NCBI GenBank assembly: GCA_028286835.1
Contig: JAQBQT010000011.1
Span: forward strand, 71,246-129,191
Length of the DNA: 57,946 nt
Direction of reading: 5' to 3'
Source: Candidatus Parcubacteria bacterium
GTDB taxonomy: Bacteria; Patescibacteriota; Minisyncoccia; Phycocordibacterales; PALSA-1337
Both the position numbers and the translations under genes were made by a program. Within the stretch, counting starts at the first letter, position 1. Every line of letters starts with the position of its first letter. A model generated the notes under the pieces. That model saw only the letters and a list, made by a program, of their open reading frames with translations, was not told where the DNA came from and did not search any database. Positions 24,348-50,651 of this stretch are shown here, in pieces.

Positions 24348-25130
24348 ATGTCTCATCAAAATACCACTCTAAAAAAGGTCAGCGTACTGATACCCTGCTA
24401 TAACGAAGTGGGTGGTATCGCAAACGTAATAAAGAGTTTCCCTTTCGAAAAGGCGCTCTCTCAGGGGTTTTTATTCGACATCATCGTCATCGACAATAAC
24501 TCGACAGATCAGACTGCGGATATTGCCCGTGCACATGGGGCTACTGTCCTCTTCGAACCTATGAAGGGCAAGGGTAATGCGATGAAACGCGGCTTCTATT
24601 CCATACCGACGGACACGGACTACGTAGTCATGCTAGATGGGGACGATACATATCGTCCCGAAGAGATCCTCCGCCTTATAGAGCCTCTTCATTCAGATTT
24701 CTGCGACGTTGTGATCGGTTCCCGCCTCAGCGGACGCATTATGAATGGTTCCATGAACAACCTCAACCGAGCGGGTAACTGGATCTACTCCCATTTGGTG
24801 CGCTATTTCTATAAGGTGAATGTCACAGACGTTCTCACAGGTTACTTCGCCTGGAAGAAATCTGCTCTCGAAGACCTCAGACCACACCTCTATTCTCAGG
24901 GCTTTGCCATTGAGATGGAGATGGTCACTAAGATGGCAAAATTGAATCAGCAAATCTGTTGCGTGCCTATCAGTTATCACATTCGCGCTGGAAGGACTAA
25001 TTTGAGCCCCGTACGCGATGGCATCCGTATCCTTTGGATGTTCACAAAGAACCTTTATTGGGCTCCCACTATCCCTACAAAGAAATCACTCGAAGAGTCT
25101 AAATTCGTCTCACAATTGCAGCAAGGTTAA
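24348..25130 (+). CDS. GT2 glycosyltransferase (polyprenol-phosphate glycosyltransferase-like)
   Basis: VSVLIPCYNE, VIDNNSTD, GKGNA, MLDGDDTY, VIGSR, DVLTGY, FAIEMEM. Confidence 0.92.
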   Translation: MSHQNTTLKKVSVLIPCYNEVGGIANVIKSFPFEKALSQGFLFDIIVIDNNSTDQTADIARAHGATVLFEPMKGKGNAMKRGFYSIPTDTDYVVMLDGDDTYRPEEILRLIEPLHSDFCDVVIGSRLSGRIMNGSMNNLNRAGNWIYSHLVRYFYKVNVTDVLTGYFAWKKSALEDLRPHLYSQGFAIEMEMVTKMAKLNQQICCVPISYHIRAGRTNLSPVRDGIRILWMFTKNLYWAPTIPTKKSLEESKFVSQLQQG

Positions 25131-25140
25131 CATCGTTCCG

Positions 25141-28539: not shown

Positions 28540-29698
28540 CCCCACTAACAACAAAAGGGCTCTTCCTCACATTGTCATCGCAACTGCCTATTTCTATCCA
28601 AAGATCGGAGGCGTTGAGAATTATTCCTACATGCTCGCTAAGAAGCTGCAAGAAAGCGGTGAATACACTGTAAGCATCATCACGAGCGACTACGACAATA
28701 CAAAAAACGCAAAACTGATTATCGATGGTATGACTGTATATCGCCTACCTGTGGGCTTCAGACTCTCCAACACTCCGATGAACCTGAGATGGTACTGGGA
28801 AATAAAGAAGATCCTTAAACAAGAGAAGCCCGATATACTTCATGTGCACTCCCCCGTCCCGTACCTTCCAGACATGGCTGCATGGGCAGGTAAAAATGTA
28901 CCCATGGTATTCACATACCATTCGGGCAGCATGAAAAAAGGCAAATGGCCTATCGATGCGCTAATACAGATCTACGAGAAAGTCTTCCTTGCAAAGATGT
29001 TCCAGCGAGCAAGGGCTGTTATCGCAATCTCACAAGAGTTCGTAAAAAATACATTTCCTCAGTACAAGAATAAAACCTTTTTCATTCCGACAGGAGTAGA
29101 TTTAGGCAGGTTTAAGAAGATGCCCTTACCCGCATCACAGCGAGTCACATACGTTGGTCGCATTGAACACAGCTCGAGCTGGAAAGGCATTGATTCATTG
29201 CTCCAAGCCATGACTATCGTCGTATCCCAATGCCCCGAGGCTACGCTTGAGCTTATTGGCGGCGGCGATGCACTCCCCCACTATAAGGAACGTGCGGCGC
29301 AACTCGGCATCGCCGAATCAGTCGTATTTTCTGGACCAAAACGAGGGGCCGAACTGGTCGAAGCATACAGCAGGTCCAACGTAGTCGTTTTATCTTCGAT
29401 ATCAGATTCGGAAGCTTTCAGCGTTACGCTCGTTGAAGCTATGGCATGCGGTAGGCCGATCGTCGGAACCAATATCGGAGGAACTCCTCAGCTCATAGAC
29501 CACGAGAAGAACGGCCTGCTTGTGGCTCCTAACAAGCCAGAAGAGCTTGCGGCTGCAATTATCAGAGTCCTCAACGATACAACTCTTGCACAAAACCTCG
29601 CGGCATCAGGAGCTGAGAGATCCATAGGTTTCTCATGGGATATCCAAGCGAAAAAATACTCCGACATTTTCCAGTCGATGTTAACCAAAAACATATGA
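28532..29698 (+). CDS. GT4 glycosyltransferase
   Basis: YFYPKIGGVEN, EAFSVTLVEAMACG. Close paralog of module 2 of the triple fusion. Confidence 0.92.
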   Translation: MNNPTNNKRALPHIVIATAYFYPKIGGVENYSYMLAKKLQESGEYTVSIITSDYDNTKNAKLIIDGMTVYRLPVGFRLSNTPMNLRWYWEIKKILKQEKPDILHVHSPVPYLPDMAAWAGKNVPMVFTYHSGSMKKGKWPIDALIQIYEKVFLAKMFQRARAVIAISQEFVKNTFPQYKNKTFFIPTGVDLGRFKKMPLPASQRVTYVGRIEHSSSWKGIDSLLQAMTIVVSQCPEATLELIGGGDALPHYKERAAQLGIAESVVFSGPKRGAELVEAYSRSNVVVLSSISDSEAFSVTLVEAMACGRPIVGTNIGGTPQLIDHEKNGLLVAPNKPEELAAAIIRVLNDTTLAQNLAASGAERSIGFSWDIQAKKYSDIFQSMLTKNI

Positions 29699-34393: not shown

Positions 34394-34399
34394 TCTTCC

Positions 34400-35686
34400 A
34401 TGAGAATCCTTTTTATTTCAGAATATTACCCGCCCTATATCAAAGGAGGAGCAGAAGTAAGCACCTTTCTCTTAGTGAACCAGCTGGCGATAGAACATAC
34501 GATTACAATCGCATGCAGCAAGATCGCAACAGGACCATGGAACGAAAGGGGTGTTGAAGTGCATCCGATAATACGGAGGTTCACTCTGAAAAATAAAAAT
34601 ATACTATCGATCCTACAATACGGCTTTGGCATTATTTTCAATCCTTTAATCTCGGCCGTAGCCATCATTAGGCTAGCAAAGAAGGTTCGTCCGGAACTAG
34701 TGAACATAGTTCCCTCCTCGTACCAGTTCATTCCTATTGCACTGATCATGAGGCTCATCTTGGGCATACCGACAATCGTTGACTGCCGCGACTACAGCAT
34801 TATTTGTCCTGCCCATATGAATTGCGACAGATTCGACGATAGCATATTCAGAACCCATGGATACAGATGCCTTAGGACGTATAACGTGGAGAACAAATTC
34901 CTTTCACTTTTCATCGCCCCGTTCGCGTTATATGAATCGACTGTCTTTAATGCATACAAATATTCCCTGCGCTTCACGCTTGAACATGTGGACGGATTAA
35001 GGCTAATCACACTGAGCCGATATGTGCGAGATCAATTAGTACTGAATGGATTCGCTAAGAACAAGATATCCGTCATCGCTAACATCTGCGAGATCCCTGA
35101 CCGTGAACCGCAACAGGGAAAACTAGGATTGCCAACCTTTGCGTTCGCTGGCCGCCTGGAGAAAGGAAAAGGCGTCTGGGAGATCGTAATGGCGGCAGAG
35201 ATGTTACAGAAGCGCGGATATGATTTTGAAGTGCACATAGCAGGAACTGGAGATGAAGCTTCTAGTCTGGAGTCATATGTCAGAGACAATCCTAATACGC
35301 CGGTTAAATTATTGGGCAAAATGGATCATACTCAGGTGATGGAGCTCTATGAAGCGGCTACGGCCATCCTCGGGCCCTCACAGTGGCCAGAGCCCTTCGG
35401 ACGCTTCATTCTGGAAGCATTCAGTATGGGAAAACCGATAATCGCTACGCGAAGCGGTGGTATCCCTGAAGCAATTAATGATACAGTGACTGGAGTGCTT
35501 ATAGATCCAAAATCCCCTTCTCAATTAAGCTATGCGATGCAGTATTTCATCGATCATCCCGAAAAAGGCATAGCAATGAAAGCTGCGATCATTCGGGAAA
35601 GAGAGAAATACAAAGCAACTTGGATAGCGAAGGAGAGAGTAGGCATTTATGCGAATCTAATCGCACGTCAACACACATCTTTATGA
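34400..35686 (+). CDS. GT4 glycosyltransferase
   Basis: EYYPPYIKGGAE, FAGRLEKGKG, PEPFGRFILEAFSMGKP. Confidence 0.92.
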   Translation: MRILFISEYYPPYIKGGAEVSTFLLVNQLAIEHTITIACSKIATGPWNERGVEVHPIIRRFTLKNKNILSILQYGFGIIFNPLISAVAIIRLAKKVRPELVNIVPSSYQFIPIALIMRLILGIPTIVDCRDYSIICPAHMNCDRFDDSIFRTHGYRCLRTYNVENKFLSLFIAPFALYESTVFNAYKYSLRFTLEHVDGLRLITLSRYVRDQLVLNGFAKNKISVIANICEIPDREPQQGKLGLPTFAFAGRLEKGKGVWEIVMAAEMLQKRGYDFEVHIAGTGDEASSLESYVRDNPNTPVKLLGKMDHTQVMELYEAATAILGPSQWPEPFGRFILEAFSMGKPIIATRSGGIPEAINDTVTGVLIDPKSPSQLSYAMQYFIDHPEKGIAMKAAIIREREKYKATWIAKERVGIYANLIARQHTSL

Positions 35687-36567
35687 ATACACTAAAGGAA
35701 TCTTTAAGAAAAATCACTCCGCACTTCATCCTCGATATCGTTGGAAGATACGATTTTATCAAAAAAACCGAATTATTTTCAGAGAGGCCCTTTTATAGCA
35801 TGTGTAAGCTCTCACGCTGGATGTTCTTCGTTTGGACCAAAAGAGATGTTTCCTTCCGAACTCCCGATGGAACGAGATTCGTTTCGATGCCATATAATTT
35901 GAGCTCGTTTTTTGTTTGCTTTACAAATTACCGCGATCCGGCTATCCAGAAATTCATGACAACGCATCTAAAAACAGATGCTGTATATGTCGACGCTGGT
36001 GCCAATATAGGGACGTACAGTGTGAGGGCAGGACAATACCTCAAGCACGGCCAAGTCATTTCTTTTGAGGCACACCCGCTGATATTCTCTTATTTTGAAA
36101 GGAATATCAAACTAAACGGATTGCGTAATGTCAGATTATGCAATGTCGCGCTGGGCGCAGAGAATGGAGAGACCGAAATGGCGTATTCCAGTAAGAATGC
36201 CGGCGAGACACATATCGCGACGCCTGGCGAGCAGAAGATTAGCGTTCCTCTGCGGACGCTCGATAGTGCCCTTATGGAAATGAGCATTCGTGAGATCGAT
36301 TATTTGAAGATTGATGTCGAAGGGTTTGAGCTTCCTCTCCTGAAGGGTTCTAAGGAGATTGTGCGGAACAGCAAAAAGATAATCATCCAGACGGAATTGA
36401 ACAACAAGCATGCGCAAAGATACAATAATTCTGTAAAGGATCTAACGGACCTACTTATGAGCTGGGGGTTGGCACCGCACTCAATTGACAATAACGGACA
36501 ATCCCATACTATGGAGCCAAAGGAGCTTGAGGAGGATTGTGACGTGCTTTGGTGGAGAGAACAATAA
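35683..36567 (+). CDS. FkbM-family SAM-dependent methyltransferase
   Basis: VDAGANIG, FEAHP, NVALG, LKIDVEGFE. Start set to ATG 35683. Confidence 0.92.
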   Translation: MNTLKESLRKITPHFILDIVGRYDFIKKTELFSERPFYSMCKLSRWMFFVWTKRDVSFRTPDGTRFVSMPYNLSSFFVCFTNYRDPAIQKFMTTHLKTDAVYVDAGANIGTYSVRAGQYLKHGQVISFEAHPLIFSYFERNIKLNGLRNVRLCNVALGAENGETEMAYSSKNAGETHIATPGEQKISVPLRTLDSALMEMSIREIDYLKIDVEGFELPLLKGSKEIVRNSKKIIIQTELNNKHAQRYNNSVKDLTDLLMSWGLAPHSIDNNGQSHTMEPKELEEDCDVLWWREQ

Positions 36568-36576
36568 TCGATCAAG

Positions 36577-37839
36577 ATGAATACCACAGCAATAAAAAAA
36601 GAGGTCCATGTTAGATTTTCAGGAGGTAAAGTGAAACCTTTGATCCTCCTGATGAGTCTAAGTATTTTTGCTTTTTTTATTTTGGTCGGTTTCATCCGCT
36701 CGATTTCTCAAAACGAACCGCCTGCAGTTGTAACCCCGGCCCTCACCTCTACTACGACAACGGCGGCATCGACAACTTTCCCTAGTAAACCTAATCCCCC
36801 AGTAGTCACCCGCCCTACAACACCCGTAACCATAACGCCAAGCGGCCTTGCGGGGATCGGGCATGCAGTAGGAATCTCTGCCGGAGGATCTCTGTCGCGA
36901 ATGAGTCTGTCGGATATGAATGCGTATCTCGACCAAATGTCAGCCCTCGGCGTCACGTGGGTCAGGTTCGATGTCGAGTGGGGCATCGTTCAATATAATT
37001 CACCCAACAATTTCGACTGGAGCAATTTCGATGACCTTGTAAGTGCGATCAACTCCCACCATATGAATGGCCTAGGTATCATCCTTTTCACCCCAGCATG
37101 GGCTCGAAATCCATCCTGTACAGGTGGCGCAAAGTGCCCTCCAAACGATCCTCAACAGTTCGCAACATTCGCTGCTTCCCTCGCAAACCGATACAAAGAC
37201 AAAGGTATCCACGATTGGGAGATCTGGAACGAACCAAATAACTATGATTTTTGGGCGACAAAAACAGACTGCGTCGCATATACGAATCTTCTTAAGGTCA
37301 CATATCCTGCTATAAAGGCTGTTGACCCGCTCGCAGTCATCGTGAGCGGCGGTCTAGCTCCCGAAAATACCGACAACCACAACATATCTCAGATGGACTT
37401 CCTCAGGTGCATCTATGCCAATGGCGGGAAAGAGTATTTCGATGTGTTCGGTGACCACTCATACACATTTCCCTCCCTACCAAGCGATAATAAAACAAAT
37501 ATCTGGGCACAAATGTCTGTCACGTCTCCAAGCCTGCGCAGCATCATGATCGCGAACGGCGATGGCGCAAAAAAGACATGGATCACAGAATTTGGAGTTC
37601 CCACGAATGGCCCTAACTCAAACTGGTATGTAAGCGAAGCTCGACAAGCGCAAATGGTCGTAAGCTCGATGAATCTATACAAGACCTATGACTGGGCAGG
37701 GCCTATATTCTGGTACACGTTGAGAGATAATGGCACGTCAACGAATACAAATGAGAATTTCTTTGGGCTTATACGAGCGGACGGAAGCCTTAAACCTGCT
37801 TATACAACGCTCAAAGATATACTCTCTCACGGAATCTAA
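36577..37839 (+). CDS. Membrane-anchored clan GH-A glycoside hydrolase (GH5/GH39-like)
   Basis: N-terminal TM and P/T linker, WVRFD, TPAWA, WEIWNEPN (acid/base Glu), WITEFG (nucleophile Glu), FGLIR. Confidence 0.85.
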   Translation: MNTTAIKKEVHVRFSGGKVKPLILLMSLSIFAFFILVGFIRSISQNEPPAVVTPALTSTTTTAASTTFPSKPNPPVVTRPTTPVTITPSGLAGIGHAVGISAGGSLSRMSLSDMNAYLDQMSALGVTWVRFDVEWGIVQYNSPNNFDWSNFDDLVSAINSHHMNGLGIILFTPAWARNPSCTGGAKCPPNDPQQFATFAASLANRYKDKGIHDWEIWNEPNNYDFWATKTDCVAYTNLLKVTYPAIKAVDPLAVIVSGGLAPENTDNHNISQMDFLRCIYANGGKEYFDVFGDHSYTFPSLPSDNKTNIWAQMSVTSPSLRSIMIANGDGAKKTWITEFGVPTNGPNSNWYVSEARQAQMVVSSMNLYKTYDWAGPIFWYTLRDNGTSTNTNENFFGLIRADGSLKPAYTTLKDILSHGI

Positions 37840-37898
37840 TCACACCACGATAACCTTCTTCCACGCAAGGACAATATAGGGTATGCTGGATACTATAC

Positions 37899-40319
37899 AT
37901 GATGAAACGTATGGCCATTATGGCCATTTATATTTTATGTAGTACGTGTTCGCTGTCTCCTCTCACAAAAAAAGCCGAAGCCTCCACATTCTCTATCGGC
38001 GAACGTGTCTACATAGTAAATACCCTGAGGGTGCATAAGATACCCTCCAATTCCACCGACTCGATAGTCGGCGCGCATCCTGCTGGCAGCTTTGGAACGA
38101 TCATAAGTGGTCCCAAAGTAACATCTGCCTATACCTGGTGGCAGGTAGACTACGATTCAGGCGCAGACGGTTGGAGCGCATCGAATTGGCTCTTTCGTGC
38201 CCCCATCCAAACTATCGCTAAAAAAAATAGCATTGTCTCAAGCACGAATCTTTCAGGCACTATAGGAAATCAAACAGGGAACACTGCTGTGCAAGTCGGA
38301 AATCAAATACAGACCACAGCTAATCTGAAGGTACGTTCTGCTCCATCAGCTAACGGAGCACCCATTGGCAAGCATACTGTCGGGTCCAAAGGGACAGTTA
38401 CAGCAGGGCCAGTCTCAGCGAACGGTTATAAATGGTGGCACATCGAATACAGAGATGGACTATCAGGATGGAGCGCACAAGATTGGCTCGCACCCGCCGC
38501 AAGCTCTGCGCCTGTAATTCCGATCTCCACAGCCGACTCAGCGATGCCATCGACAGCAAATGATACTCCATCATATTCCGGAGAAGGCGGGGGTGGATCT
38601 GCAACACGTGCACCTGTCATACCGACACCACCAGTATCTACAAATACCGGAGGCGGTGGAGGCGGATCAGTACTACCGGCACCTATCATACCGACACCAC
38701 CAGTATCTACAAATACCGGAGGCGGTGGAGGCGGGAATCCATCTATCTCCGCACCGACTCCGACGACCTACACGTTAAATGCATCAAGCGACGTTGGCGG
38801 AACTATTTCTCCAACCGGATCTACAAAGATAAATAGCGGAGCTTCTCAGACATACCTCATCACCGCAGCTAGCGGCAAGAAGATTTCAACTGTCAGCATC
38901 GATGGAAAAGCTCTGTCAGGAACACCTTCAAGCTACGTCTTCTCAAATGTGACCGCAAACCATACCATACATGCTACGTTCGCCGTTTCTACAACAACAC
39001 CACCTTTACAGCTGACAGCGCCGACCATCACATCTTTCAAGGCGGGCACCTCAACGATAACGACTGGCAAATCTACTAGCTTGACCTGGATTGTTACTGG
39101 AACCCCGACGCCATCGATCAGCATCAATCAGGGCATTGGTACCATCATTGGAACAAGCTTGGTTCTGATCTCCCCTACCACTACCAAGGTATATACCCTG
39201 ACCGCATCGAATACGTCTGGCACAAAAACGGCTCAAGTCACCGTCATCGCCATCGCACCCAGCACCAGCACGCCAACCGCCAACGATCAGCCCCCAGCAA
39301 CACCTGCCACTGCCGGATCCAGTGCGGCAGCGCAGATCGGGCACACGGCCGGCATATCGGCGGGATGGCCCCTGTCACAGATGACGCCCGCAGCAATGAA
39401 TGCCTATCTCGATCGGCTTGTCGAACTCAAGGCGACTTGGGTACGGTTCGATATTGATTGGGACCTCATTCAAAAGGATTCGCAGAACGCATTCGACTGG
39501 AGCAAGATAGACAGCTTGGTTGCAGCTATAAACAGCCACCATCTGAGCGGTCTTGGCATACTACAATTCACGCCGGCCTGGGCTCGTAATTCTGCTTGTG
39601 CGAGCGGCAATAAATGTCCGCCGAACAAGTTCGACCAATTCGCGACGTTTGCCGCAGCCGCCGCCACCCGATACAAGGACAAAGGCATTCACACCTGGGA
39701 GATATGGAACGAGCCAAACAATGCCATCTTCTGGGCGCCACGTACTGATTGCGCTGCATATACGAGCCTGCTCAAAATCACGTACACGGCGATCAAAACT
39801 GCTGACCCAGGGGCCGTAGTCTTGAGCGGCGGCTTAGCTCCAGAACCCACTGATACCTACAACACTTCCCAAGCAGATTTCCTTAAGTGTATCTATACGA
39901 ATGGAGGCAAAGAGTATTTCGACGTCTTGGCTGACCACTCATATACATTCCCTGCTCTTCCTTCTGATAACAATACGAACATGTGGGCTCAAATGGCGGC
40001 GACAAACCCGAGCCTACGCAGCATCATGAGCACCAACGGGGATTCACATAAAAAAATGTGGATTACTGAATTCGGCACCCCTACGAATGGTCCTGATTCG
40101 AATACATTTGTTGATGAGGCTCGGCAATCTCTTATGGTCACAAGCGCCATGACTCTCTATAAGACCTATGATTGGGCCGGGCCGATATTCTGGTACACAT
40201 TGAATGACCTTGGTATATCAACGAGCACTATCGAGAACTTCTTCGGATTAATCCGAGCAGATGGAAGCCTAAAGCCAGCATTCACGACTCTCAAAAATAT
40301 CATAAACGCTGGCCTATGA
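37899..40319 (+). CDS. Secreted multidomain glycoside hydrolase: 2x SH3b-like, P/G/T linker, beta-sandwich modules, GH-A catalytic domain
   Basis: Signal peptide (KAEA/S), two ...GP...GY.WW.V.Y..G..GW modules, WEIWNEPN and WITEFG. Catalytic domain is a paralog of the preceding gene. Confidence 0.8.
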   Translation: MMKRMAIMAIYILCSTCSLSPLTKKAEASTFSIGERVYIVNTLRVHKIPSNSTDSIVGAHPAGSFGTIISGPKVTSAYTWWQVDYDSGADGWSASNWLFRAPIQTIAKKNSIVSSTNLSGTIGNQTGNTAVQVGNQIQTTANLKVRSAPSANGAPIGKHTVGSKGTVTAGPVSANGYKWWHIEYRDGLSGWSAQDWLAPAASSAPVIPISTADSAMPSTANDTPSYSGEGGGGSATRAPVIPTPPVSTNTGGGGGGSVLPAPIIPTPPVSTNTGGGGGGNPSISAPTPTTYTLNASSDVGGTISPTGSTKINSGASQTYLITAASGKKISTVSIDGKALSGTPSSYVFSNVTANHTIHATFAVSTTTPPLQLTAPTITSFKAGTSTITTGKSTSLTWIVTGTPTPSISINQGIGTIIGTSLVLISPTTTKVYTLTASNTSGTKTAQVTVIAIAPSTSTPTANDQPPATPATAGSSAAAQIGHTAGISAGWPLSQMTPAAMNAYLDRLVELKATWVRFDIDWDLIQKDSQNAFDWSKIDSLVAAINSHHLSGLGILQFTPAWARNSACASGNKCPPNKFDQFATFAAAAATRYKDKGIHTWEIWNEPNNAIFWAPRTDCAAYTSLLKITYTAIKTADPGAVVLSGGLAPEPTDTYNTSQADFLKCIYTNGGKEYFDVLADHSYTFPALPSDNNTNMWAQMAATNPSLRSIMSTNGDSHKKMWITEFGTPTNGPDSNTFVDEARQSLMVTSAMTLYKTYDWAGPIFWYTLNDLGISTSTIENFFGLIRADGSLKPAFTTLKNIINAGL
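38611..38734 (+). repeat. Intragenic 55-nt direct repeat (period 69 nt)
   Basis: 38611-38665 and 38680-38734 differ at one base and encode P(V/I)IPTPPVSTNTGGGGG twice. Confidence 0.9.
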
Positions 40320-42664
40320 TCTCATCTAAGGGAATAGCTAAAATATCGGTTGCGTGGATGATAGTCACAACCTGTGTTGTTTTCATCCCCAGCATTTCTG
40401 CGTGGATCGCAACCCCTTTCGTCTTGGTTGGCATTATATTCGTGCCCGGTCTATTGCTTGCCGTCAATCTGGGGATCCATCGAAAAAGTATCCTCGAATA
40501 TATCCCCTACTCATTAGGACTCGGGCTCGGATTCGTGATTATAGGCGGATTGGCTTTGAACTGGGTATTACCGCACGCAGGCGTATCCGCTCCTCTTGCG
40601 CGGGTGCCGCTTATTGTATTCTTCAATTGCTCTGTACTGGTATTAGCTGTAATAGCTTACAAATTTAAAACCGTGGAGACAGAGTTTGAAATTGGTTGGC
40701 CTGACGTAACAAGTGTGTTATTCGGGACAGTGCCCCTGCTCTTCGTAGTAGCGAACGTAGTCGGAGCAGAAAGATTGAACAACGGACAGAACGGAATAAT
40801 GACACTCACGACGTTGGCATGCACCACAATCTACTTCTTAATTCTATCCTGTCAGAAAAAACAGCCCAAAGAGTGGGTGTACATCTGGTCTCTATACTGT
40901 ACCTCCCTCTCGCTTTTACTTATGTACTCATTAAGAAGCTCCCATATATTCGGCTGGGATATCAACCAGGAATACCAAGTATTTCAGGCAACACTCCAAC
41001 ATCTTGTGTGGAAAGTATCCTATTATCCTAATTTCGACTACAACGCCTGTCTGAGCATCACTATATTGCCAACGATTCTGAAGGTACTAACGAACATATC
41101 AAGCGAATATGTATTTAAAATCACATATCAGCTCATTTTTGCTGCTGTTCCAGCCCTCGTATACTTACTCTGCAAACGGTACCTCACTCAAAATCTAGCA
41201 TTCGTAGCGGCATTTCTATTACTGTCACAGAGATGGTTTTACGAACAAATGCCTGCTTTGATACGGCAAGAGATCGCATTCATATTCTATATATTCATAC
41301 TCATCGCGCTCTTTGATACAGATTTGTCTAAACGAACCCGCTATACCCTATTATCTATATTCACTACTGCTCTGGTGCTTTCTCATTACTCAACGACATA
41401 TATTTGGATCGCCGTGATGTTTGGAGGACTCGCTATGTCTTATCCTGCGCGCTTTTTCATCAAATCATTGCGCAAACAAAAACCAGTCATCAGCCCGATC
41501 ATACTAATCTTCACAATCATCATCCTGGCGGTATGGGAGATACCGGTAACGCATACCGGGAGTGCCCTTTCTAAATTTGCCACAAATCAAAATCCTTTAG
41601 GTGCAACAAAGCCCGCAGCAGATGTACCACCACAGACAGTCCAGCATCCGGAGAATACAAGTGATGGTATAAATATCGACACCAAAACTATAGCCCACGA
41701 TGCTCCTGCAGCCCAGGCGGATACTATGGCCCACAAACTCATACAGCAGCTTTCTTTTGCGACCACAAACCCAAACAGTCAAACTAATCTGGAGATAGCG
41801 TACCAAAAAATTATTAATGCTTATGGTAACCCTACCAAATACGATATATACAGCGATGGATCAAACTCACACTATATGCCACGTGTTGTAAATAATACGG
41901 CTCACATGTCGCCCCAAATAAATCCATCCTTATCGACAATCATCCGCTTCGCCGAAACAACTTCTAAAATAGTCCTCATAGATATGTTCCCTATTGCTGG
42001 GATAATTGTCCTTTGTTTGCGCCTTCGAAAACGAGAGTCCAGCACCACATACGACCTCATTCTCATAAACATGAGTGCACTCGGACTTATAACACTTACC
42101 CTTCTCGTCCCCTATCTTCAGGACTACTACAATCTAACCCGGCTCTACCTGCAAATGTTCATTTTAATCTGCATGCTTTCTATCGTTGGGGGGATGGCAC
42201 TACTCAAATCGCTTCCACGGTATCAAATCGAAATTCTTGCATGCATTGTGGCGATTATGTTCTGTTCCCAAAGCGGATTATTTGAACAATTTACGGGGGG
42301 AGAAAAGCGACTCACACTCAATTCTCTTCCAGGGAATCTGGATATCTACTATACATATGACAGCGATATTGCCGGCGCCAAATGGTTGGCTAAAAATAGA
42401 GACCCTATCGCCCCAATCCAATCTGACATTATATCCTCATTGCGCCTCCAGTCATTTGGAGATATAGCAGCGGGTAATTTTGCAATACTTCCCCAAACTC
42501 TTCGTCGAAATAGTTATGTGTATCTGACAAATCTAAACATTAATTCAGGAAAAAACTTCTACCAGTACGAAAATAATCTTTTGATATTCAACTATCCCTT
42601 AGAATTCCTCGACTCGCACAAGAATCTCATCTATAGCGCCGGGGGATCAAGAATTTACAGGTAA
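40316..42664 (+). CDS. DUF2206-like polytopic membrane protein 2
   Basis: IFGWDINQEY, ACLSITILP, RQEIAFIF, SHYSTTY, C-terminal IYSAGGSRIYR. Distant paralog of 32018..34393. Confidence 0.7.
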   Translation: MISSKGIAKISVAWMIVTTCVVFIPSISAWIATPFVLVGIIFVPGLLLAVNLGIHRKSILEYIPYSLGLGLGFVIIGGLALNWVLPHAGVSAPLARVPLIVFFNCSVLVLAVIAYKFKTVETEFEIGWPDVTSVLFGTVPLLFVVANVVGAERLNNGQNGIMTLTTLACTTIYFLILSCQKKQPKEWVYIWSLYCTSLSLLLMYSLRSSHIFGWDINQEYQVFQATLQHLVWKVSYYPNFDYNACLSITILPTILKVLTNISSEYVFKITYQLIFAAVPALVYLLCKRYLTQNLAFVAAFLLLSQRWFYEQMPALIRQEIAFIFYIFILIALFDTDLSKRTRYTLLSIFTTALVLSHYSTTYIWIAVMFGGLAMSYPARFFIKSLRKQKPVISPIILIFTIIILAVWEIPVTHTGSALSKFATNQNPLGATKPAADVPPQTVQHPENTSDGINIDTKTIAHDAPAAQADTMAHKLIQQLSFATTNPNSQTNLEIAYQKIINAYGNPTKYDIYSDGSNSHYMPRVVNNTAHMSPQINPSLSTIIRFAETTSKIVLIDMFPIAGIIVLCLRLRKRESSTTYDLILINMSALGLITLTLLVPYLQDYYNLTRLYLQMFILICMLSIVGGMALLKSLPRYQIEILACIVAIMFCSQSGLFEQFTGGEKRLTLNSLPGNLDIYYTYDSDIAGAKWLAKNRDPIAPIQSDIISSLRLQSFGDIAAGNFAILPQTLRRNSYVYLTNLNINSGKNFYQYENNLLIFNYPLEFLDSHKNLIYSAGGSRIYR

Positions 42665-43930
42665 CCCTGGGGTCGGACGATTCCTGTATAGGAATATGTA
42701 CACGAAGGCGATTATTGCAGCCACAAGATTGCCTACCAGCCACGCTATAGCGATCCAGGATAGCCCCTTATTAGCCCAAAACACCGCCAAGAAGGCCACA
42801 ACCCCTGCATATACTACATTCGTTATGACCAGAGCATACATCTGATGCCTGATCCTCAATAAGACGCTGCCAATATTGAATGCTGCGACAGCTGGGGCCG
42901 CAAGCGCCAAGAGGGCTATGACCTCTGAACCTCCAGAGCTATATGACTTACCAAAAAATCTTAAAATGTCAGGGCCAAAAAACGCGAGGATGAGACCTGC
43001 AGGTAACATCAAGAACACCATTATTTTTAGCGAACCCTTGATGAGATCTCGTATAGATTTCTCGCTGTACGATCCTTCGGCGAATAGAGACTGAGAGACC
43101 GACGCTGAAACTGTGTAAAGTAAATTGATGATCATGAAGGCCAGATAGAAGTACCCTGCCGCATCAGCCCCCAAGCGGCCGATGATGATAATCGGCAATA
43201 TCGAAGTCGGCACTATACTAAAAAGATTTGCGAGATAATTAGTAAATGAATAATGCAATACTTTCTGGAGTATTTCCTTATCGATTCTGATCTCTGGACG
43301 ATACCCGAACTTGATATACAGCAAAGTGAAGCTCACGAGCATTCCGATCGAGACGGCGAGGCCCGAAGCCGCGAATATGCCGTAGGCTCCGACCCCAATA
43401 AAAACAAAAGGCAGTAGAAGCTTAGCGACGCTAATGATGATACCGTCAGTGAGAAAGTTATACTGAGCTGCTCTATATGCGATGAATATGCTATCGCTCA
43501 AAGAGTTCGCTGCTGCAAAAGTGACCATGATGACGAAACCTATGGAGTACCATACGTTCTCCCGGATGATGCCTAAAGATGGCGTTATATACGGAATTAG
43601 GATGATATAAGCTATCGAGATCAGTGCAGCAGCCCCCATTACTATGATCGATCCAGTATTGATCTCCTTATTCCTGTTCTGGGAGCTAGGCAAGAACCTG
43701 ACAAACGTACTATTGAAACCGAAAAGGCTTACGAATGAGATGAGTGTCATCGCCGAGATAAGCGTCGTGCTCACCCCGATCTGGCTTGGGGTAAAAATAT
43801 GAGTGCAAACCAGCCAAAAGAAAAAGCCGAAGCCGCCCATAGTACCAGTCGTCAGCATAAGATAAATAGAATTCCGGAAAAGATTGTCTTCCAAAAAGTG
43901 TTTCCAGAGAAGATTGAAAGGCTTAGTCAT
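42647..43930 (-). CDS. Oligosaccharide flippase (Wzx/MOP superfamily)
   Basis: FRNSIYLM, FGFNSTFVRFLP, GADAAGYFYLA, SLFAEGS, 12 or more TM segments. Start set to ATG 43930. Confidence 0.88.
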   Translation of the reverse strand: MTKPFNLLWKHFLEDNLFRNSIYLMLTTGTMGGFGFFFWLVCTHIFTPSQIGVSTTLISAMTLISFVSLFGFNSTFVRFLPSSQNRNKEINTGSIIVMGAAALISIAYIILIPYITPSLGIIRENVWYSIGFVIMVTFAAANSLSDSIFIAYRAAQYNFLTDGIIISVAKLLLPFVFIGVGAYGIFAASGLAVSIGMLVSFTLLYIKFGYRPEIRIDKEILQKVLHYSFTNYLANLFSIVPTSILPIIIIGRLGADAAGYFYLAFMIINLLYTVSASVSQSLFAEGSYSEKSIRDLIKGSLKIMVFLMLPAGLILAFFGPDILRFFGKSYSSGGSEVIALLALAAPAVAAFNIGSVLLRIRHQMYALVITNVVYAGVVAFLAVFWANKGLSWIAIAWLVGNLVAAIIAFVYIFLYRNRPTPGLPVNS

Positions 43931-43999
43931 TCGAGTATATATTACATTACGTTTTCTTTTATACCTCGTCAACCTGATGTCTTCATGTATAATTGCAGC

Positions 44000-44218
44000 A
44001 TGAAAGCACTTAAGGCCCTCACCTTTACACTATTCTTTTTCGGTTTTGCTGGATGGTTTTATATTGCAGAAAATGCTGCGTTTCATCCCAATACTCTTGT
44101 ATTGCCGCTCACACATCTCGCTTCATGGCCTCGCGAAGATACATTCGGGATCATTTGCTTTGGACTCTCCTTCTTAAGCCTTTTCATCTACATGCTTATA
44201 AAAGATAGGAATAAATGA
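44000..44218 (+). CDS. Small two-TM membrane protein (72 aa)
   Basis: MKALKALTFTLFFFGFAGWFYIA...HLASWPREDTFGIICFGLSF. TATAAT lies 6 nt before the ATG. Confidence 0.7.
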   Translation: MKALKALTFTLFFFGFAGWFYIAENAAFHPNTLVLPLTHLASWPREDTFGIICFGLSFLSLFIYMLIKDRNK

Positions 44219-44220
44219 TG

Positions 44221-44294
44221 TCCGCCCTCATGGATTCGAACCATGGACCCCAGAGGTATAAGCTCTGTGCTCTAACCAACTGAGCTAAGGGCGG
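44221..44294 (-). tRNA. tRNA-Ile with UAU anticodon, CCA not encoded
   Basis: CCGCCCT-TA-GCTC-AGTTGGTTA-GAGC-A-CAGAG-CT TAT AC-CTCTG-GGGTC-CATGG-TTCGAAT-CCATG-AGGGCGG-A. All stems pair fully. Confidence 0.9.
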
Positions 44295-46864: not shown

Positions 46865-46907
46865 AAAAGAAAACAGCCCTTCTTCCCCATGAAGAGAGGC
46901 TGTTTTC
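46865..46907 (-). terminator. Intrinsic terminator
   Basis: GAAAACAGCC...GGCTGTTTTC hairpin followed by TTTT on the minus strand. Confidence 0.75.
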
Positions 46908-46924
46908 GGAGCCTTTCGAAAAGC

Positions 46925-47140
46925 CTATTTGCTTCCGCAGCCGCAGCACTTGCAGAGCTTGCTCAAGCCGATGATCATGAGGAGGATCGGCCACGATGTG
47001 CTCACTGCAGCGGCATCAATCACGGCGAAGTTGCCGAGAAGGAAGATGAGGCCGATAAGCGTGATGGCGATCGGGGCTACGATATGGTGCTGGCACGAGC
47101 AGGCGCAATTGCAGGTCTTGGAAGCTTCATTCGGGTTCAT
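46925..47140 (-). CDS. Small Cys-rich two-TM protein (DUF5668/LiaF-TM-like)
   Basis: CNCACSCQHH-TM(LIGLIFLLGN)-WPILLMIIGL-CKCCGC, with its own terminator. Confidence 0.7.
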   Translation of the reverse strand: MNPNEASKTCNCACSCQHHIVAPIAITLIGLIFLLGNFAVIDAAAVSTSWPILLMIIGLSKLCKCCGCGSK

Positions 47141-47294
47141 AAAATGAAAAACGATTATATGCTTTTGATAAGTCACGAAATTATATCATGGCCGTTTGCC
47201 TTGCGAGATGATATTGACATTAATAACATATTATGGTTGTATTCTAGCAGTTCTTTCAGAATCACAACACACAAACACTCAACCCACAGAGACA

Positions 47295-47840
47295 ATGAAT
47301 GACTTCAGTGATTTTTCAACTGACTTTTCGGATCGTGCTGCATCGGTAAAAACAAAGCTTCCTGTACGATTCCTTGGACCTATTGGCGAAGGAGACGATC
47401 GCGGACGGGAAGCTCTTGAAACGGCCGGAGTAAAATTTCTTGAAACAGTGCCGAACAATTCCCTCTTTCAGCACGTAGAGCTGCCGGCAAACTGGAAGCT
47501 TGTGTACCATCCACGTCACCTCTTCTGGACACACTTGATCGACCATCAGGGTCGCAAGCGTGCCGGGATCTTCAGCAGGAATGGATACAGCGATCCGTAT
47601 GTGCTCGTATCGTGCAGACTGAGTTACAAGCGGACAAGCGACTACGATAACTTCGTTATGTATGTTTCGACAGCAGTGTTCAAAGATGGTCTTGAAATCT
47701 ACACGGTAGCTGAGAATCAGCGGCCTGATAGCACCGAGTCAGAGCGACACACGTTGGCGGAAGATGTCGATGCTCGAGCCCTGGAATGGTTACAGGGAAA
47801 GTACCCAAACTGGCAGGACCCGCGGGCATATTGGATTTAA
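47295..47840 (+). CDS. Hypothetical protein with a phage-like motif set
   Basis: LF..VELPANWK...HLFWTHLIDHQGRKRAGIF and C-terminal WLQGKYPNWQDPRAYW. Start set to ATG 47295. Confidence 0.65.
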   Translation: MNDFSDFSTDFSDRAASVKTKLPVRFLGPIGEGDDRGREALETAGVKFLETVPNNSLFQHVELPANWKLVYHPRHLFWTHLIDHQGRKRAGIFSRNGYSDPYVLVSCRLSYKRTSDYDNFVMYVSTAVFKDGLEIYTVAENQRPDSTESERHTLAEDVDARALEWLQGKYPNWQDPRAYWI

Positions 47841-47871
47841 AATAGCCGACCTTAAAAAATTCGCCCGCAGC

Positions 47872-47908
47872 AACCCTTCGAGACACATTCTCGAGGGGTT
47901 TTTATTTT
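47872..47908 (+). terminator. Intrinsic terminator
   Basis: AACCCTTCGAGA-CACAT-TCTCGAGGGGTT followed by TTTATTTT. Confidence 0.8.
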
Positions 47909-47917
47909 ATTTTGTAT

Positions 47918-47954
47918 AAAAATGCCTCCGTGAGATTTCTCTTACGGAGGCATT
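47918..47954 (-). terminator. Intrinsic terminator (convergent partner)
   Basis: AATGCCTCCGT...ACGGAGGCATT stem followed by TTT on the minus strand. Confidence 0.8.
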
Positions 47955-47965
47955 GGTATTGACGC

Positions 47966-48121
47966 TTAGGTTTTCTTTTCGGCGTCATTGGCTTTTTCGT
48001 CGGCGTCATCCGCCGTTTTCTGTTTTTCGTCGGCATCAGCTCGGGCCACTTCTGCTTCCGCTTCTTTGGTTTCTTTCTGGGCTTGATCCAGATGCTCTTG
48101 TGCTGCTTCTTTATCGGGCAA
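47966..48121 (-). CDS. Small acidic Ala/Glu/Lys-rich helical protein (51 aa), TTG start
   Basis: AAGGAGGTGATT then ACA TTG, giving MPDKEAAQEHLDQAQKETKEAEAEVARADADEKQKTADDADEKANDAEKKT. Has its own terminator. Confidence 0.75.
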   Translation of the reverse strand: MPDKEAAQEHLDQAQKETKEAEAEVARADADEKQKTADDADEKANDAEKKT

Positions 48122-48217
48122 TGTAATCACCTCCTTCAAAATCGAATGGTATAGCAAAACATATCCTGATGCAAAGGCATCATGCAAAACGCATACAAAG
48201 CTATGTGTTCCTATAAT

Positions 48218-48288
48218 GTGGACTTTGTGAGCCAAAGTTGGAACTACCTACCCTCTTGGTTATTTGAAGCGTCCAAAGCGATTTTAAG
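48218..48288 (+). repeat. 71-bp direct repeat, copy 1
   Basis: GTGGACTTTGTGAGCCAAAGTTGGAAC...TATTTGAAGCGTCCAAAGCGATTTTAAG. 61 of 71 positions identical to copy 2 with no gaps. Confidence 0.92.
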
Positions 48289-48299
48289 TTTATCCGTAC

Positions 48300-48340
48300 A
48301 AAAAGAAGCGCCCACCGAAGCGAGGCTTCCGTGGGCGTGA
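48300..48340 (-). terminator. Intrinsic terminator of the Clp N-domain gene
   Basis: CGCCCAC-GGAAGCCTCGCTTCG-GTGGGCG then CTTCTTTTT on the minus strand. Confidence 0.75.
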
Positions 48341-48365
48341 TTATGGTTCAAACTGTTTCTGTCGT

Positions 48366-48812
48366 CTATACTTCGAGTTCCTTTCGGATGAAGCCTGTGA
48401 GCTCATCTCCATATTGCAGATGCAGGTCAACAAAGACTTCTCCAGCGAAAGCGGCAGGATTTTTGACCAGAGCCAGAAGAACGTGTTCAGTCCCGATGTA
48501 GACGTTTTCCTTGATCACCGTTTCCCGCTCTTGCGCGGCGACAACCATAACATCGACAGCGTCTTGGGAAAATCCAATTTCCGCAATACTGTTTTTATTC
48601 GCAATCGCAAACAACTCGCGAGCTTCATTGACAATCGGAGCATTATTTATTTGGTAATGCTTCTCGAGAACCGACCAGGCCACCCCTTGACCAAGCCTAA
48701 CGATTGCCAAAAGGAGGTGGTAGGGTTCAACATTGCTGTCTTTCCTGAGAGCAGCTTTACGGGCCAAAGCGAGCACCTGATGGAGCCGCGGCGTGTAATT
48801 TACTCGGATCAT
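48366..48812 (-). CDS. Stand-alone Clp N-terminal (repeat/R) domain protein
   Basis: YTPRLHQVLALA...VEPYHLLLAIV...GQGVA and FSQDAVDVM...YIGTEHVLLALV: both Clp-N repeats, with no AAA+ domain before the stop. Confidence 0.82.
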   Translation of the reverse strand: MIRVNYTPRLHQVLALARKAALRKDSNVEPYHLLLAIVRLGQGVAWSVLEKHYQINNAPIVNEARELFAIANKNSIAEIGFSQDAVDVMVVAAQERETVIKENVYIGTEHVLLALVKNPAAFAGEVFVDLHLQYGDELTGFIRKELEV

Positions 48813-48878
48813 TGTAAAGGTAAAACTAGTCCGTTTATTTGAAAGAACCATTCGGAAAGATACCGAGGGCTCAAAAAC

Positions 48879-48907
48879 ACCTTACAATTCTGTAGTATGG
48901 TTGTCAA
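48879..48907 (-). promoter_or_regulatory. Sigma70-type promoter for the Clp-N gene
   Basis: TTGACA-N17-TAAGGT. Confidence 0.6.
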
Positions 48908-48912
48908 ATTTG

Positions 48913-48983
48913 GTGGATTTGGTGAGCCAAAGTTGGAACCGGCTACCCTTCTGGATATTTGAAGCGTCCGAAGCGATTATAAG
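48913..48983 (+). repeat. 71-bp direct repeat, copy 2
   Basis: GTGGATTTGGTGAGCCAAAGTTGGAAC...TATTTGAAGCGTCCGAAGCGATTATAAG. On the minus strand, with two flanking bases, it ends ...ATCCACCA. Confidence 0.92.
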
Positions 48984-49132
48984 GGCTCGATCATTTGCAC
49001 ATTAACACTCAGGAACAGGTTAATAACAGTGCTTGGGGTCACATGCTGGGAATGGAGTACGGGTATACAAGTATATGTTATTTAAGTTATTAATAATGAA
49101 TATAAAGACAAACAGGAGTATGCTTTGAAATT

Positions 49133-50197
49133 ATGACTCTTATTATGGGTTTAAACTTCAGCCATAAGTTGTATCTAGCCGGAGATACCCGAGTAACAAG
49201 GACTGAACCAGGGAAAGAGCCCATTTCAATCGACAATATTGCAAAAATCGTCCCGATATGGGGAAAGCAGATACTTGGTCAGGCTTTTTATGACAAGAAC
49301 ACAATTGCATTAGCTGTGGCTGGAGATTTACACTTTGCATCTTTTATTAAGGAAAAGGTAACGAATGCCTTAAACAAAAAAGAACTCAATTCGAACATAA
49401 GGGTTTTTTCCACTCAAATAAAAGAATACTTGAGAACTGCAACTGACGAGTGGCTCCTAGATCATGAATATTCCAATTGCGCTTTAATATTTGCTGGAAT
49501 GAATTTAAGGGCTCGTAAAAAAATCTCACAAGAAAAATTGGATGAATTACTTGCGCAACATGAACAACAACGCGAAAAAGATAAGCCTTCTCGTGATCGT
49601 TTTATCAAAGAAGTACTTCCCACAAATCCTACTTGGCAAGCAATGGAGGCAAAACTACTCCAACAAAGAGGTAAAGGTGTGGAAGAAATGATAAAGGAGG
49701 GTGACATTCCAAAGATTAGTCCCTGGATACAAAAGGCTATTGATGAAAAAACAAATGAAATCGATATGCCTGATTCACTCATCATTGGAATTGAAATAAA
49801 GCCACATCAAGGTATTTTTAACCAGCAGGAGGCCGAATGGGGAGAATTCATTGCTTATGGGGCTGGTTTAACAAAAAATGATCTCAACCAATCAATGATG
49901 GCCGTTCTAGAATTTAGTCACATAAAAGAGGAGGATAACCCTAGGCTTCTTGAAGGGGCTATATTAACAAGTGAAATTTTGGATACTGCAAAAAACAAAA
50001 AAATCGGATCAATAGGAGGAACTGTGCTGTTATACAGCTTAGAAATGGACGGTCAGATGAGGATTTCAGGAAAAGATGTAAAGTTTAACAATCCAGGAGA
50101 ACCGATATCTCTTAAACTAATGGGTCAAGATGTTCCACTAATAATGTTCCATCAATACCCCAAAATCCCTAAGGGTCCTGAGACGATGGAAATGTAG
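49133..50197 (+). CDS. Ntn-hydrolase / proteasome-beta-like protein with a large helical insertion
   Basis: M-T-LIMGL start, LAGDTRVT, AKI, AVAGD, LIFAG, FIAYGAG, SIGGTV. Markedly AT-rich. Confidence 0.65.
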   Translation: MTLIMGLNFSHKLYLAGDTRVTRTEPGKEPISIDNIAKIVPIWGKQILGQAFYDKNTIALAVAGDLHFASFIKEKVTNALNKKELNSNIRVFSTQIKEYLRTATDEWLLDHEYSNCALIFAGMNLRARKKISQEKLDELLAQHEQQREKDKPSRDRFIKEVLPTNPTWQAMEAKLLQQRGKGVEEMIKEGDIPKISPWIQKAIDEKTNEIDMPDSLIIGIEIKPHQGIFNQQEAEWGEFIAYGAGLTKNDLNQSMMAVLEFSHIKEEDNPRLLEGAILTSEILDTAKNKKIGSIGGTVLLYSLEMDGQMRISGKDVKFNNPGEPISLKLMGQDVPLIMFHQYPKIPKGPETMEM

Positions 50198-50288
50198 ATT
50201 GATGACAGAAAAAGCGGCTTTGAAACCGCTATTCTGTCCCTGCCTCTCAGGGTATTTATCCTCCCAGAGGCTCAAAAAGGGGTGCTAG

Positions 50289-50651
50289 TGGAGATGGCGG
50301 GAATCGAACCCGCGTGCAATCGAGGCTGTCCGGACGGTTCTACGACGGTAGTCATCTTTGTGGTTTAGTGAACGGACTCAAAAGAAGACAAAACGCACAT
50401 TCACGATCTCTATGGTTCGGGTAGTAAGGTGAGAAACCCTACTGCCCTACATCCAGGTTATGACATCGCACTAAGGTCAGGATCCCCCTAGATTGACGCG
50501 CACTACTTAAGCGAGTGCGAATGCAAAGTCCTTGGCTCCGAAATACGGAGATACGGTGTTTTTAGCATTTCGAGTTTCCAACGGATTAACGAGTCGCTGG
50601 TGCTCGCGCCGCGCGAACGGAAGCCGGCAATTGTCTATGCCGATCATCCCC
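50289..50651 (-). ncRNA. ssrA: tmRNA
   Basis: 5' GGGGATG pairs with 3' CATCTCC-A with a G3-U70 wobble. T-arm GCGGG-TTCGATT-CCCGC. Internal tag ORF 50566-50507. Adjacent to smpB. Confidence 0.96.

Follow-up and report, generated by a model that had tools for sequence, protein, structure and literature searches.

The stretch of DNA that we analyzed, 57,946 nucleotides (nt) of contig JAQBQT010000011.1 and hereafter called the window, carries at positions 49133 to 50197 of the forward strand a gene (P0001) which, with little doubt, encodes a proteasome-beta-like N-terminal-nucleophile (Ntn) protein of 354 amino acids (aa), a predicted hydrolase. The open reading frame (ORF) begins with an ATG codon, 14 nt downstream of the Shine-Dalgarno-like sequence AGGAG (49114 to 49118, forward strand), and this start is considered settled since the Met-Thr N terminus is conserved in the family. 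The Ntn gene is convergent with the gene for transfer-messenger RNA (tmRNA, ssrA; 50286 to 50651, reverse strand; Rfam RF00023, 94.7 bits), beyond which smpB is located, and a hairpin with a T-run that resembles an intrinsic terminator for the tmRNA lies between the tmRNA and the Ntn stop codon (50213 to 50230, reverse strand). On the other flank, a divergent gene (48366 to 48851, reverse strand) encodes a 161-aa protein built of Clp_N repeats alone (the Clp_N-only protein; Pfam Clp_N, E = 1.8e-10; phage family phrog_35667, E = 2e-10), followed by a small acidic ORF, a hypothetical protein, a LiaF-like transmembrane protein, FtsH, and a tRNA-Ile(TAT). The Ntn protein itself contains the motifs MTL (residues 1 to 3), GDTRVT (17 to 22), AKI (37 to 39), AG (63 to 64), LIFAG (118 to 122), YGAGL (242 to 246, where GAG replaces GSG), and SIGG (293 to 296). 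Thr2, GDTRVT, AKI, AG, LIFAG, GAG, and SIGG had been listed, in this same order, in an earlier model-made note based on the letters and their translations (the sequence-only reading), which proposed a divergent, AT-rich protein of the proteasome-beta/HslV type.

Searched as a single sequence, the protein gave no match in Pfam, in NCBIfam (including its HslV model), in PADLOC, or in the PDB sequence set; PF00227 did not match it at E <= 1 and hence did not reach its gathering threshold, and the sole hint was the PHROG "peptidase HslV family" (E = 0.03, residues 1 to 82). Nine close homologs, 29 to 52% identical, were retrieved among 5.8 billion clustered proteins, and a profile built on them identified 194 proteins at E <= 0.001, of which 144 at E <= 1e-10, among 1.84 billion representatives; apart from truncated fragments, all 194 are 300 to 385 aa long. 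The nine-homolog profile did not match any PDB entry. A family alignment and profile of 130 full-length members, often only ~20% identical to the window protein, did match yeast and other proteasome beta2 subunits in the PDB (E = 1.6e-7) with the catalytic residues in register. In this alignment Thr2 falls on the mature Thr1, "aaDTRvT" on the beta2 segment "AADTRST," an invariant Lys on Lys33, "avAGd" on "AAAGT" (Gly47), and "cLiFaGvd" on "YLIVAGVD" of strand S6. Weaker matches were to proteasome alpha subunits (E = 2e-5) and to HslV (E = 0.009), while PF00227 itself matched 73 of the 130 members at E < 1, the best at 2.4e-7.

The AlphaFold monomer model, built on the alignment with the nine homologs, reached a mean predicted local distance difference test (pLDDT) score of 83.9 and a predicted template modeling (pTM) score of 0.83, and its strands (S) and helices (H) follow the order of a proteasome beta subunit: S1 (residues 4 to 8), S2 (13 to 18), S3 (21 to 23), S4 (39 to 43), S5 (57 to 64), H1 (66 to 81), H2 (89 to 108), S6 (116 to 130), four extra helices within 133 to 205, S7 (209 to 223), S8 (228 to 234), S9 (238 to 242), H3 (254 to 266), H4 (270 to 288), S10 (298 to 303), S11 (309 to 312), and two more short strands. 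The C-terminal 50 residues are modeled as beta strands or as disordered. A Foldseek comparison of the model with the PDB returned 101 matches at E <= 0.001, with a best E value of 6e-6 and target-normalized template modeling (TM) scores of 0.54 to 0.68 for the top matches, and of these 101 the 50 listed all belong to proteasome subunits or to Anbu. As defined by Fuchs, Alva, and Lupas (2021; PMC8665760), the superfamily is marked by an S1-S11 core together with Thr/Ser1, Asp17, Lys33, and Gly47; in the window protein this order of secondary structure elements was found by AlphaFold and Foldseek, and the triad and the oxyanion Gly by conservation and alignment. The 130-member profile, Foldseek, and AlphaFold thus agree on a divergent proteasome-beta/HslV-type Ntn protein with the predicted alpha-beta-beta-alpha sandwich, and we consider a proteasome-type fold with a conserved catalytic apparatus to be very likely.

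The residue counts that follow were taken over the 130-member alignment, in which position 2 is aligned in 118 members. At this position, whose codon lies at 49136 to 49138 and which is the predicted nucleophile once Met is removed, 86 members have Thr and the other 32 have Ser, and such an alternation of Thr and Ser right after the initiator Met is as predicted for an N-terminal nucleophile. The apparent exceptions at the N terminus are start-codon miscalls, that is, extensions with an internal Met-Thr or proteins clipped by two to four residues; at locus L007, for instance, ATG ACA is found two codons 5' of the called start, by which Met-Thr is restored. The conservation of Thr2, on which the sequence-only reading had staked its proposal, therefore holds, as Thr or Ser, in all 118 members aligned there. 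Conservation and the beta2 alignment likewise identify the codons for Asp18-Thr19-Arg20 (49184 to 49192; equivalents of Asp17 and Arg19), Lys38 (49244 to 49246; Lys33), and Ala63-Gly64 (49319 to 49324; Gly47 of the oxyanion hole), all on the forward strand. Asp18 and Lys38 are each present in 129 of 129 members, Gly64 in 126 of 130, Arg20 in 117 of 130, and Thr or Ser at position 22 in 128. Since Thr/Ser2, Asp18, Lys38, and Gly64 were kept despite sequence identities of ~20%, the catalytic apparatus appears to be under purifying selection. Features conserved specifically in this family are Glu/Asp260 in H3 (126/130) and a [TS]-[IV]-G-G motif at 293 to 296.

The most peculiar part of the protein is an insert of 95 residues between G122 and I218 (codons 49499 to 49783, forward strand, for residues 123 to 217; delimited by AlphaFold and the family alignment), at a site that in proteasome beta subunits is taken up by a tight turn of ~12 residues. 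The insert is 48 to 99 aa long in 130 of 130 members and comes in two length classes, ~50 to 70 and 80 to 100 aa; since it is present in every member, it defines the family and is not a quirk of the window copy. Its site is anchored on the N-terminal side by S6 in the profile alignment and on the C-terminal side by DSLxxGxxI and WGExxxYG, which correspond to S7-S9. According to the model, S6 and S7 form an extended hairpin with strands about twice their normal length, on the tip of which sit the four helices (133 to 161, 166 to 179, 183 to 189, and 197 to 205; pLDDT 81 to 91), and Glu, Lys, and Gln make up 36% of residues 131 to 208 versus 20% elsewhere in the protein. The approximately 95-aa charged helical insert that had been described from the sequence is thus recovered at its full length. 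In 20S beta subunits these hairpins close the sandwich opposite to the active-site cleft, and the cleft faces the inner cavity. On this canonical topology the insert would be turned from the active site and, in any ring, toward the outside, which we regard as somewhat better than an even chance, and the "built-in gate" suggested in the sequence-only reading is unlikely, since the S6-S7 hairpin places the insert on the side opposite to the cleft. An outward module for interaction, oligomerization, or sensing is more likely than a gate.

Among the known proteasome-fold systems, the 20S beta subunits (PF00227; yeast beta2/Pup1, PDB 1RYP chain H) gave the best sequence and structural matches and share with our family the alpha-beta-beta-alpha sandwich, the Thr1/Asp17/Lys33/Gly47 register, and the "AADTRxT" and "LIxAGxD" motifs. 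However, the identity is ~11%, and the family has no propeptide, with Thr directly following Met1, and no alpha-subunit partner gene; position Ser129 is unconserved in it, and it features a 50- to 100-aa S6-S7 module, a strand-rich C-terminal extension, and, in the subgroup of the window protein, an additional loop that lies between Lys38 and Gly64. HslV (ClpQ), which is bacterial, resembles the family in the Thr right after the initiator Met, in its N-terminal motifs, and in weak PHROG and PDB matches, but it is a compact protein of ~175 aa that has no insertions and works together with the AAA+ unfoldase HslU, encoded adjacent to it, whereas the window protein has 354 aa including the 95-aa insert, and no HslU-like gene was found near any family member at the 26 loci with usable context (150 neighbors within 3.5 kb, compared by all-versus-all BLAST and a Pfam scan). 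Anbu is encoded in a conserved operon, the other genes of which specify ATP-grasp, alpha-E, and transglutaminase proteins. Anbu (PDB 5NYG and 5NYW; Foldseek E ~3e-5, TM score 0.55 to 0.63) is similarly bacterial and devoid of a propeptide and of an AAA+ partner; unlike in Anbu, the genes of this operon were not among the top 25 recurrent neighbor families listed for the 26 loci, and neither was an HslU-like unfoldase or an alpha subunit. Furthermore, Anbu has a C-terminal helix, H5, by which a coiled coil is formed between the layers of the ring (PMC8665760), whereas the C terminus of the window protein is modeled as strands, H5 is missing, and the extra helices are located in the middle of the fold.

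In PMC8665760, 22 novel proteasome-like subfamilies are described, several of them with helical insertions, and the family might already be contained in the PMI-3, PMI-4, or PHI cluster of that work, in which case it would be unannotated rather than new. Like our family, PHI as well as PMI-3 and PMI-4 are uncharacterized prokaryotic homologs whose triad is conserved and which carry large helical insertions; some derive from metagenome-assembled genomes (MAGs), and the question of ring formation is shared by both. PMI-3 (OGZ26396.1, marked "Other Bacteria") and PMI-4 (HDY66466.1) are represented by MAG proteins, and the match of our family profile to both beta and alpha subunits is a property shared with the group II/WPH-type homologs of PMC8665760. 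However, the insertion sites reported there are the N terminus, S3/S4, the region after H1/H2 (PHI along with PMI-3 and PMI-4; a "pore loop" between H2 and S6), H3/H4 (PMI-2 to PMI-6), and the C terminus; an S6-S7 insertion is not listed, and Patescibacteria are not mentioned. In the model of the window protein, the H2-S6 loop comprises only seven and the H3-H4 loop three residues, while the insertion follows S6. None of the family accessions seen equals WP_012956871.1 (PHI), OGZ26396.1, or HDY66466.1, and members such as MBY0293936.1, MBI2120728.1, and MFZ2484412.1 appear, judging by accession series, to be later than the August 2020 nr database. Moreover, PMI-3 shrinks from 28 to 11 sequences at 70% identity, whereas our family is highly diverse. 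[quoted passage not shown] It is best described as a new architectural variant within a superfamily already known to be very diverse, and our literature search found no publication later than PMC8665760 linking proteasome homologs with bacteria of the candidate phyla radiation (CPR).

Another precedent is connectase, an archaeal protein ligase (PDB 6ZVZ) with a proteasome fold, no ring or unfoldase, and a helical insertion that governs its specificity. The family, with its Ntn scaffold, large helical insert, and lack of ring-associated partners, could, by the same logic, which also applies to some PMI homologs of PMC8665760, consist of monomeric, sequence-specific processing enzymes or transpeptidases whose insert recognizes one target protein; the pTM score of the monomer and the pLDDT values of the insert suggest, in fact, a self-contained unit. 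Connectase, however, which is restricted to methanogenic archaea, is missing H1 and H2 and carries a two-helix S3/S4 insertion over its active site (PMC8665760), whereas the window protein keeps both helices and has its insertion between the strands at 116 to 130 and 209 to 223, distal to the cleft by topology. Since the connectase architecture is not present, the idea of a ligase-like enzyme, also raised in the sequence-only reading, finds no backing in the fold, and none of the 26 loci revealed a conserved neighboring substrate gene. We therefore think that a connectase-like monomeric enzyme is improbable.

As regards the distribution of the family, every named member belongs to the Patescibacteria/CPR and is annotated as "hypothetical protein," with assignments to the Patescibacteria group, the Parcubacteria group, Minisyncoccia, Saccharibacteria (two members), Peribacteria, and Magasanikbacteria. 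When the species of GTDB were scanned for a sequence pattern, each represented by one genome (185,579 genomes), only five loci emerged. A phage origin was considered and rejected, since there were no relatives in IMG/VR or, by tblastn, among the GenBank phages of INPHARED, and the structural matches in BFVD were weaker and limited to generic phage proteasome-like proteins. The host of the window is a Parcubacteria-type bacterium, the best named relatives of its FtsH (83 to 84% identical) being Minisyncoccia, Candidatus Taylorbacteria, and Paceibacterota. As far as sampled, the family thus constitutes a distinct proteasome-beta subfamily confined to the Patescibacteria, which is probably undescribed. 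One Patescibacteria FtsH retrieved along the way (P0210, 1,089 aa) contains an intein with homing-endonuclease domains (PF14890, PF05204, and PF14528), and the remainder of this FtsH is 88% identical around the intein insertion.

We then compared the window with relatives graded by the identity of their FtsH, namely, L033 (90%), L034/L035 (83%), and L036 (82%). All share a backbone of beta-CASP, L20, L35, IF3, PLD, smpB, and tmRNA on one side and FtsH and RecG on the other, while the interval between tmRNA and FtsH contains wholly different genes in each of the relatives L033, L034/L035, and L036. According to blastn, the homology between the window and L033 breaks at 50288, the 3' end of the tmRNA, and at ~46857, the start of FtsH. 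The interval so delimited in the window (46891 to 50287; blastn, tblastn, and GC content at third codon positions [GC3]), whose right boundary is the tmRNA 3' end, harbors the LiaF-like transmembrane protein, the hypothetical protein (181/214 aa), the small acidic ORF, the Clp_N-only protein, and the Ntn protein. By tblastn, the Ntn, Clp_N-only, acidic, and 214-aa hypothetical proteins have no counterpart in L033 to L036, and the LiaF-like protein has a match in L034/L035 only. GC3 changes along the island from 0.58 through 0.44 and 0.49 to 0.33, versus 0.68 to 0.79 in the flanks. The Ntn gene, with a GC content of 38% and a GC3 of 33% versus 68 to 79% GC3 in the nearby FtsH, smpB, PLD, and IF3 genes, is as AT-rich as had been noted from the sequence. 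We conclude with confidence that the Ntn gene belongs to a variable (accessory) island of 3.4 kb, in which it lies closest to the tmRNA. Since the three closest relatives are without the gene at the same locus and its composition is foreign, it was acquired horizontally, as the sequence-only reading had supposed. The gene has a GC content of ~38 to 42% in hosts with 42 to 52%. We found no integrase in the island and, between 40 and 51 kb of the window, no stretch of 14 nt or more that repeats the tmRNA 3' end in direct orientation as an attachment (att) site would.

In the more distant L006 (FtsH 64% and Ntn protein 50% identical), a family member occupies the same tmRNA-adjacent position. We examined whether this synteny reflects vertical inheritance and rejected it; nearer relatives are without the gene, both copies are AT-rich relative to their hosts, and the copy of L001, which lies on an integrase-bearing element, is 52% and 57% identical to the two tmRNA-adjacent copies, that is, closer to each than they are to one another (50%). 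For the same reasons, repeated acquisition at a hot spot is the explanation that we favor. Two further observations concern the island and its surroundings. A 71-nt element occurs twice, at 48218 to 48288 and 48913 to 48983, with 86% identity, upstream (on the reverse strand) of the acidic ORF and of the Clp_N gene, and it is the sole stretch of the island conserved in L033 (7102 to 7177; 77% over 79 nt). We discarded a structured RNA as its nature, the consensus fold amounting to -5.4 kcal/mol with one compensatory pair, and because of this weak structure and the missing Rfam match the element is probably a promoter or operator. The tRNA-Ile (anticodon TAT; 44220 to 44294, reverse strand) lies just downstream of FtsH and is found in the same place in L033 (87.5% over 88 nt).

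The position next to tmRNA also raises the possibility of a housekeeping quality-control protease, which would substitute for HslV or the proteasome in the degradation of tmRNA-tagged or misfolded proteins, perhaps with the Clp_N protein as an adaptor and in cooperation with FtsH. Indeed, in both the window and L006 the tmRNA gene and smpB converge on the Ntn gene, FtsH is found within 1 to 2.5 kb of it in L003 and L006 as well as in the window, and the Clp_N-only protein is the divergent neighbor in the window. However, tmRNA, smpB, and FtsH are all retained in the three closest relatives, which do not have the Ntn gene, and the proximity to FtsH and smpB is limited to related genomes and gone at the other 23 loci. 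The Clp_N neighbor, which has no homolog at the other 25 loci, is a feature of the window only, and there is no recurrent unfoldase, FtsH being the only recurrent AAA family and confined to three related loci. The rarity of the family in the scan of GTDB species genomes and its foreign base composition likewise argue against housekeeping. The 3' flank of tmRNA is known as a place where foreign DNA tends to settle, and this accounts for the adjacency. A quality-control role is therefore very doubtful.

Beyond the window, all-versus-all BLAST and a pooled Pfam scan of the 150 neighbors gave no candidate for a conserved partner gene, since no Pfam family occurs at more than 3 of the 26 loci and what recurs is housekeeping synteny in related genomes. 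Defense-type neighbors were found at 9 of the 26 loci. At L013, the gene at 4517 to 5998 (forward strand) encodes an AriA/PtuA/GajA-type ABC ATPase (AAA_15/AAA_21) whose stop codon is separated by 2 nt from the Ntn gene that comes next, and it is possible that the two form a two-gene module with the Ntn protein in place of the usual nuclease effector. L017, a metagenomic contig, carries at 625 to 4466 (forward strand) a complete Hachiman system (HamA, E = 4e-53; HamB, 1,090 bits), with two unannotated genes between it and the Ntn gene downstream, all in the same orientation, while at L022 HEPN_AbiV is encoded directly upstream of the Ntn gene, accompanied by a serine recombinase and a PDC-M34B-like gene. 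Further genes of accessory or conflict type are DUF4238 and AbiV at L014, a HEPN pair at L027, an EVE-HNH type IV restriction enzyme at L008, ImmA/IrrE-HTH with DUF4411 at L032, a Panacea-HTH protein, an SLFN-type ATPase, and a resolvase at L003, LexA/S24 fused to a type II methyltransferase at L007, and a tRNA, an integrase, and an XRE-HTH gene overlapping the start of the Ntn gene at L001. These neighborhoods are suggestive of a defense-island or mobile-element lifestyle.

Starting from the fold, the conservation, the position of the insert in the sequence, the range of hosts, the island, and the neighborhoods as observed, we propose how catalysis, the orientation of the insert, and the role of the protein might fit together. 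Methionine aminopeptidase would remove Met1 and expose Thr2, no propeptide being involved. The hydroxyl and the free alpha-amine of Thr2 would then form the catalytic triad with Lys38 and Asp18, with the oxyanion hole provided by Gly64, and Glu/Asp260 in H3 may stand in for part of the Ser129/Asp166 network. The helical module of 50 to 100 residues would be displayed on the tip of the elongated S6-S7 hairpin, facing away from the cleft, and the enzyme would operate without a dedicated unfoldase or fixed partner, as the product of a horizontally moving accessory gene. As to its role, we would place conflict-related proteolysis, by a defense or addiction effector or by its regulator, ahead of housekeeping turnover, since in other genomes the gene lies beside genes for tRNAs, for integrases or recombinases, and of toxin-antitoxin type, and beside antiphage systems. 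An active, accessory Ntn peptidase of a CPR-restricted subfamily, with a role possibly related to conflict, is on balance the reading that we hold to be probable; the conflict-related role, taken by itself, is put forward tentatively. Going further, the family might supply the protease effector or sensor of unrecognized CPR antiphage or addiction modules, with the helical module binding a trigger or partner and with coupling to an AriA/PtuA-type ATPase in some lineages, but we think that so specific a scheme has a slim chance of being correct.

Several points speak against the active, conflict-related peptidase. The equivalent of Ser129 (position 244, Ala in the window protein) varies across the family, and the 130-member alignment shows no clear equivalent of Asp166, so that the active-site network departs from that of canonical beta subunits. 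The orientation of the insert was drawn from textbook topology and not from the model coordinates. PADLOC, which did match neighbors at other loci, found nothing for the Ntn protein or its neighbors in the window, and no recognizable defense gene is present in the island. The link to defense is one of guilt by association, the 9 of 26 loci being counted without a background rate or an enrichment test, and several loci, such as L012 (YchF, S6, and SSB) and L024 (RecJ and DHQ synthase), are purely housekeeping. Two copies adjoin ssrA/smpB and three are near FtsH, which could hint at a role in protein quality control. Finally, a search of sequencing runs found the exact gene in one soil-metagenome DNA run and in no RNA run.

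A catalytically dead scaffold, which would use the fold for assembly or binding only in the manner of proteasome alpha subunits, might be read from the unconserved Ser129 equivalent (GAG and not GSG in the window), the unclear Asp166, and the profile match to alpha subunits, but it is highly improbable given that Thr/Ser2, Asp18, and Lys38 are universal and Gly64 nearly so across such divergent sequences, whereas alpha subunits are without Thr1 and have an N-terminal extension of which there is no sign here.

Patescibacteria have reduced genomes with few proteases, and their accessory gene pool is poorly understood. The unusual traits of the active peptidase family proposed above are its uncatalogued S6-S7 insertion site, its restriction to Patescibacteria, and its mobile accessory habit in hot spots and defense islands. 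If it did act as an immune effector or sensor, prokaryotic immunity would gain its first enzyme with a proteasome fold, and should the link to defense hold, the family would provide a new class of immune effector and a way to approach the conflict between phages and their hosts among uncultivated CPR bacteria. Otherwise, the family, unannotated so far and made up of ~200 clusters at 50% identity, still deserves a Pfam or NCBIfam model. Proteasome-fold enzymes range from unspecific degradation to a specific ligase that serves as a tool in biotechnology, and distinct branches are therefore candidates for new chemistry or regulation.

Some further observations were made at individual loci and elsewhere in the window. 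At L011, L020, and L021, two 239-aa proteins without a Pfam or PADLOC match are encoded on the same strand as the Ntn gene, which follows 30 nt on (in L020 the contig ends within the first of the two), and the three genes may constitute a lineage-specific module. At L029, a 563-aa protein (1403 to 3094, reverse strand) combines an N-terminal PF00227 domain (28.3 bits, above the gathering score) with a C-terminal DUF6941-like region; its gene is convergent with that of the family member at a distance of 38 nt, so that two distinct proteasome-like genes are adjacent. In L003, a LOOT RNA (RF03000, 74.5 bits; 10918 to 11048, reverse strand) lies upstream of a gene for a SHOCT-domain protein, in the mobile/defense island downstream of the Ntn gene. 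In the window, the stretch from ~24000 to 44000 has a lower GC content of ~42 to 48%, exceeding 50% only at 38 to 40 kb, versus ~55 to 60% in the outer flanks, and it may represent another variable or acquired region. Its part from 38 to 44 kb contains surface and glycan genes, namely, those for a GH5 cellulase with an SH3 domain, a DUF2206 membrane protein, and a polysaccharide-biosynthesis flippase.

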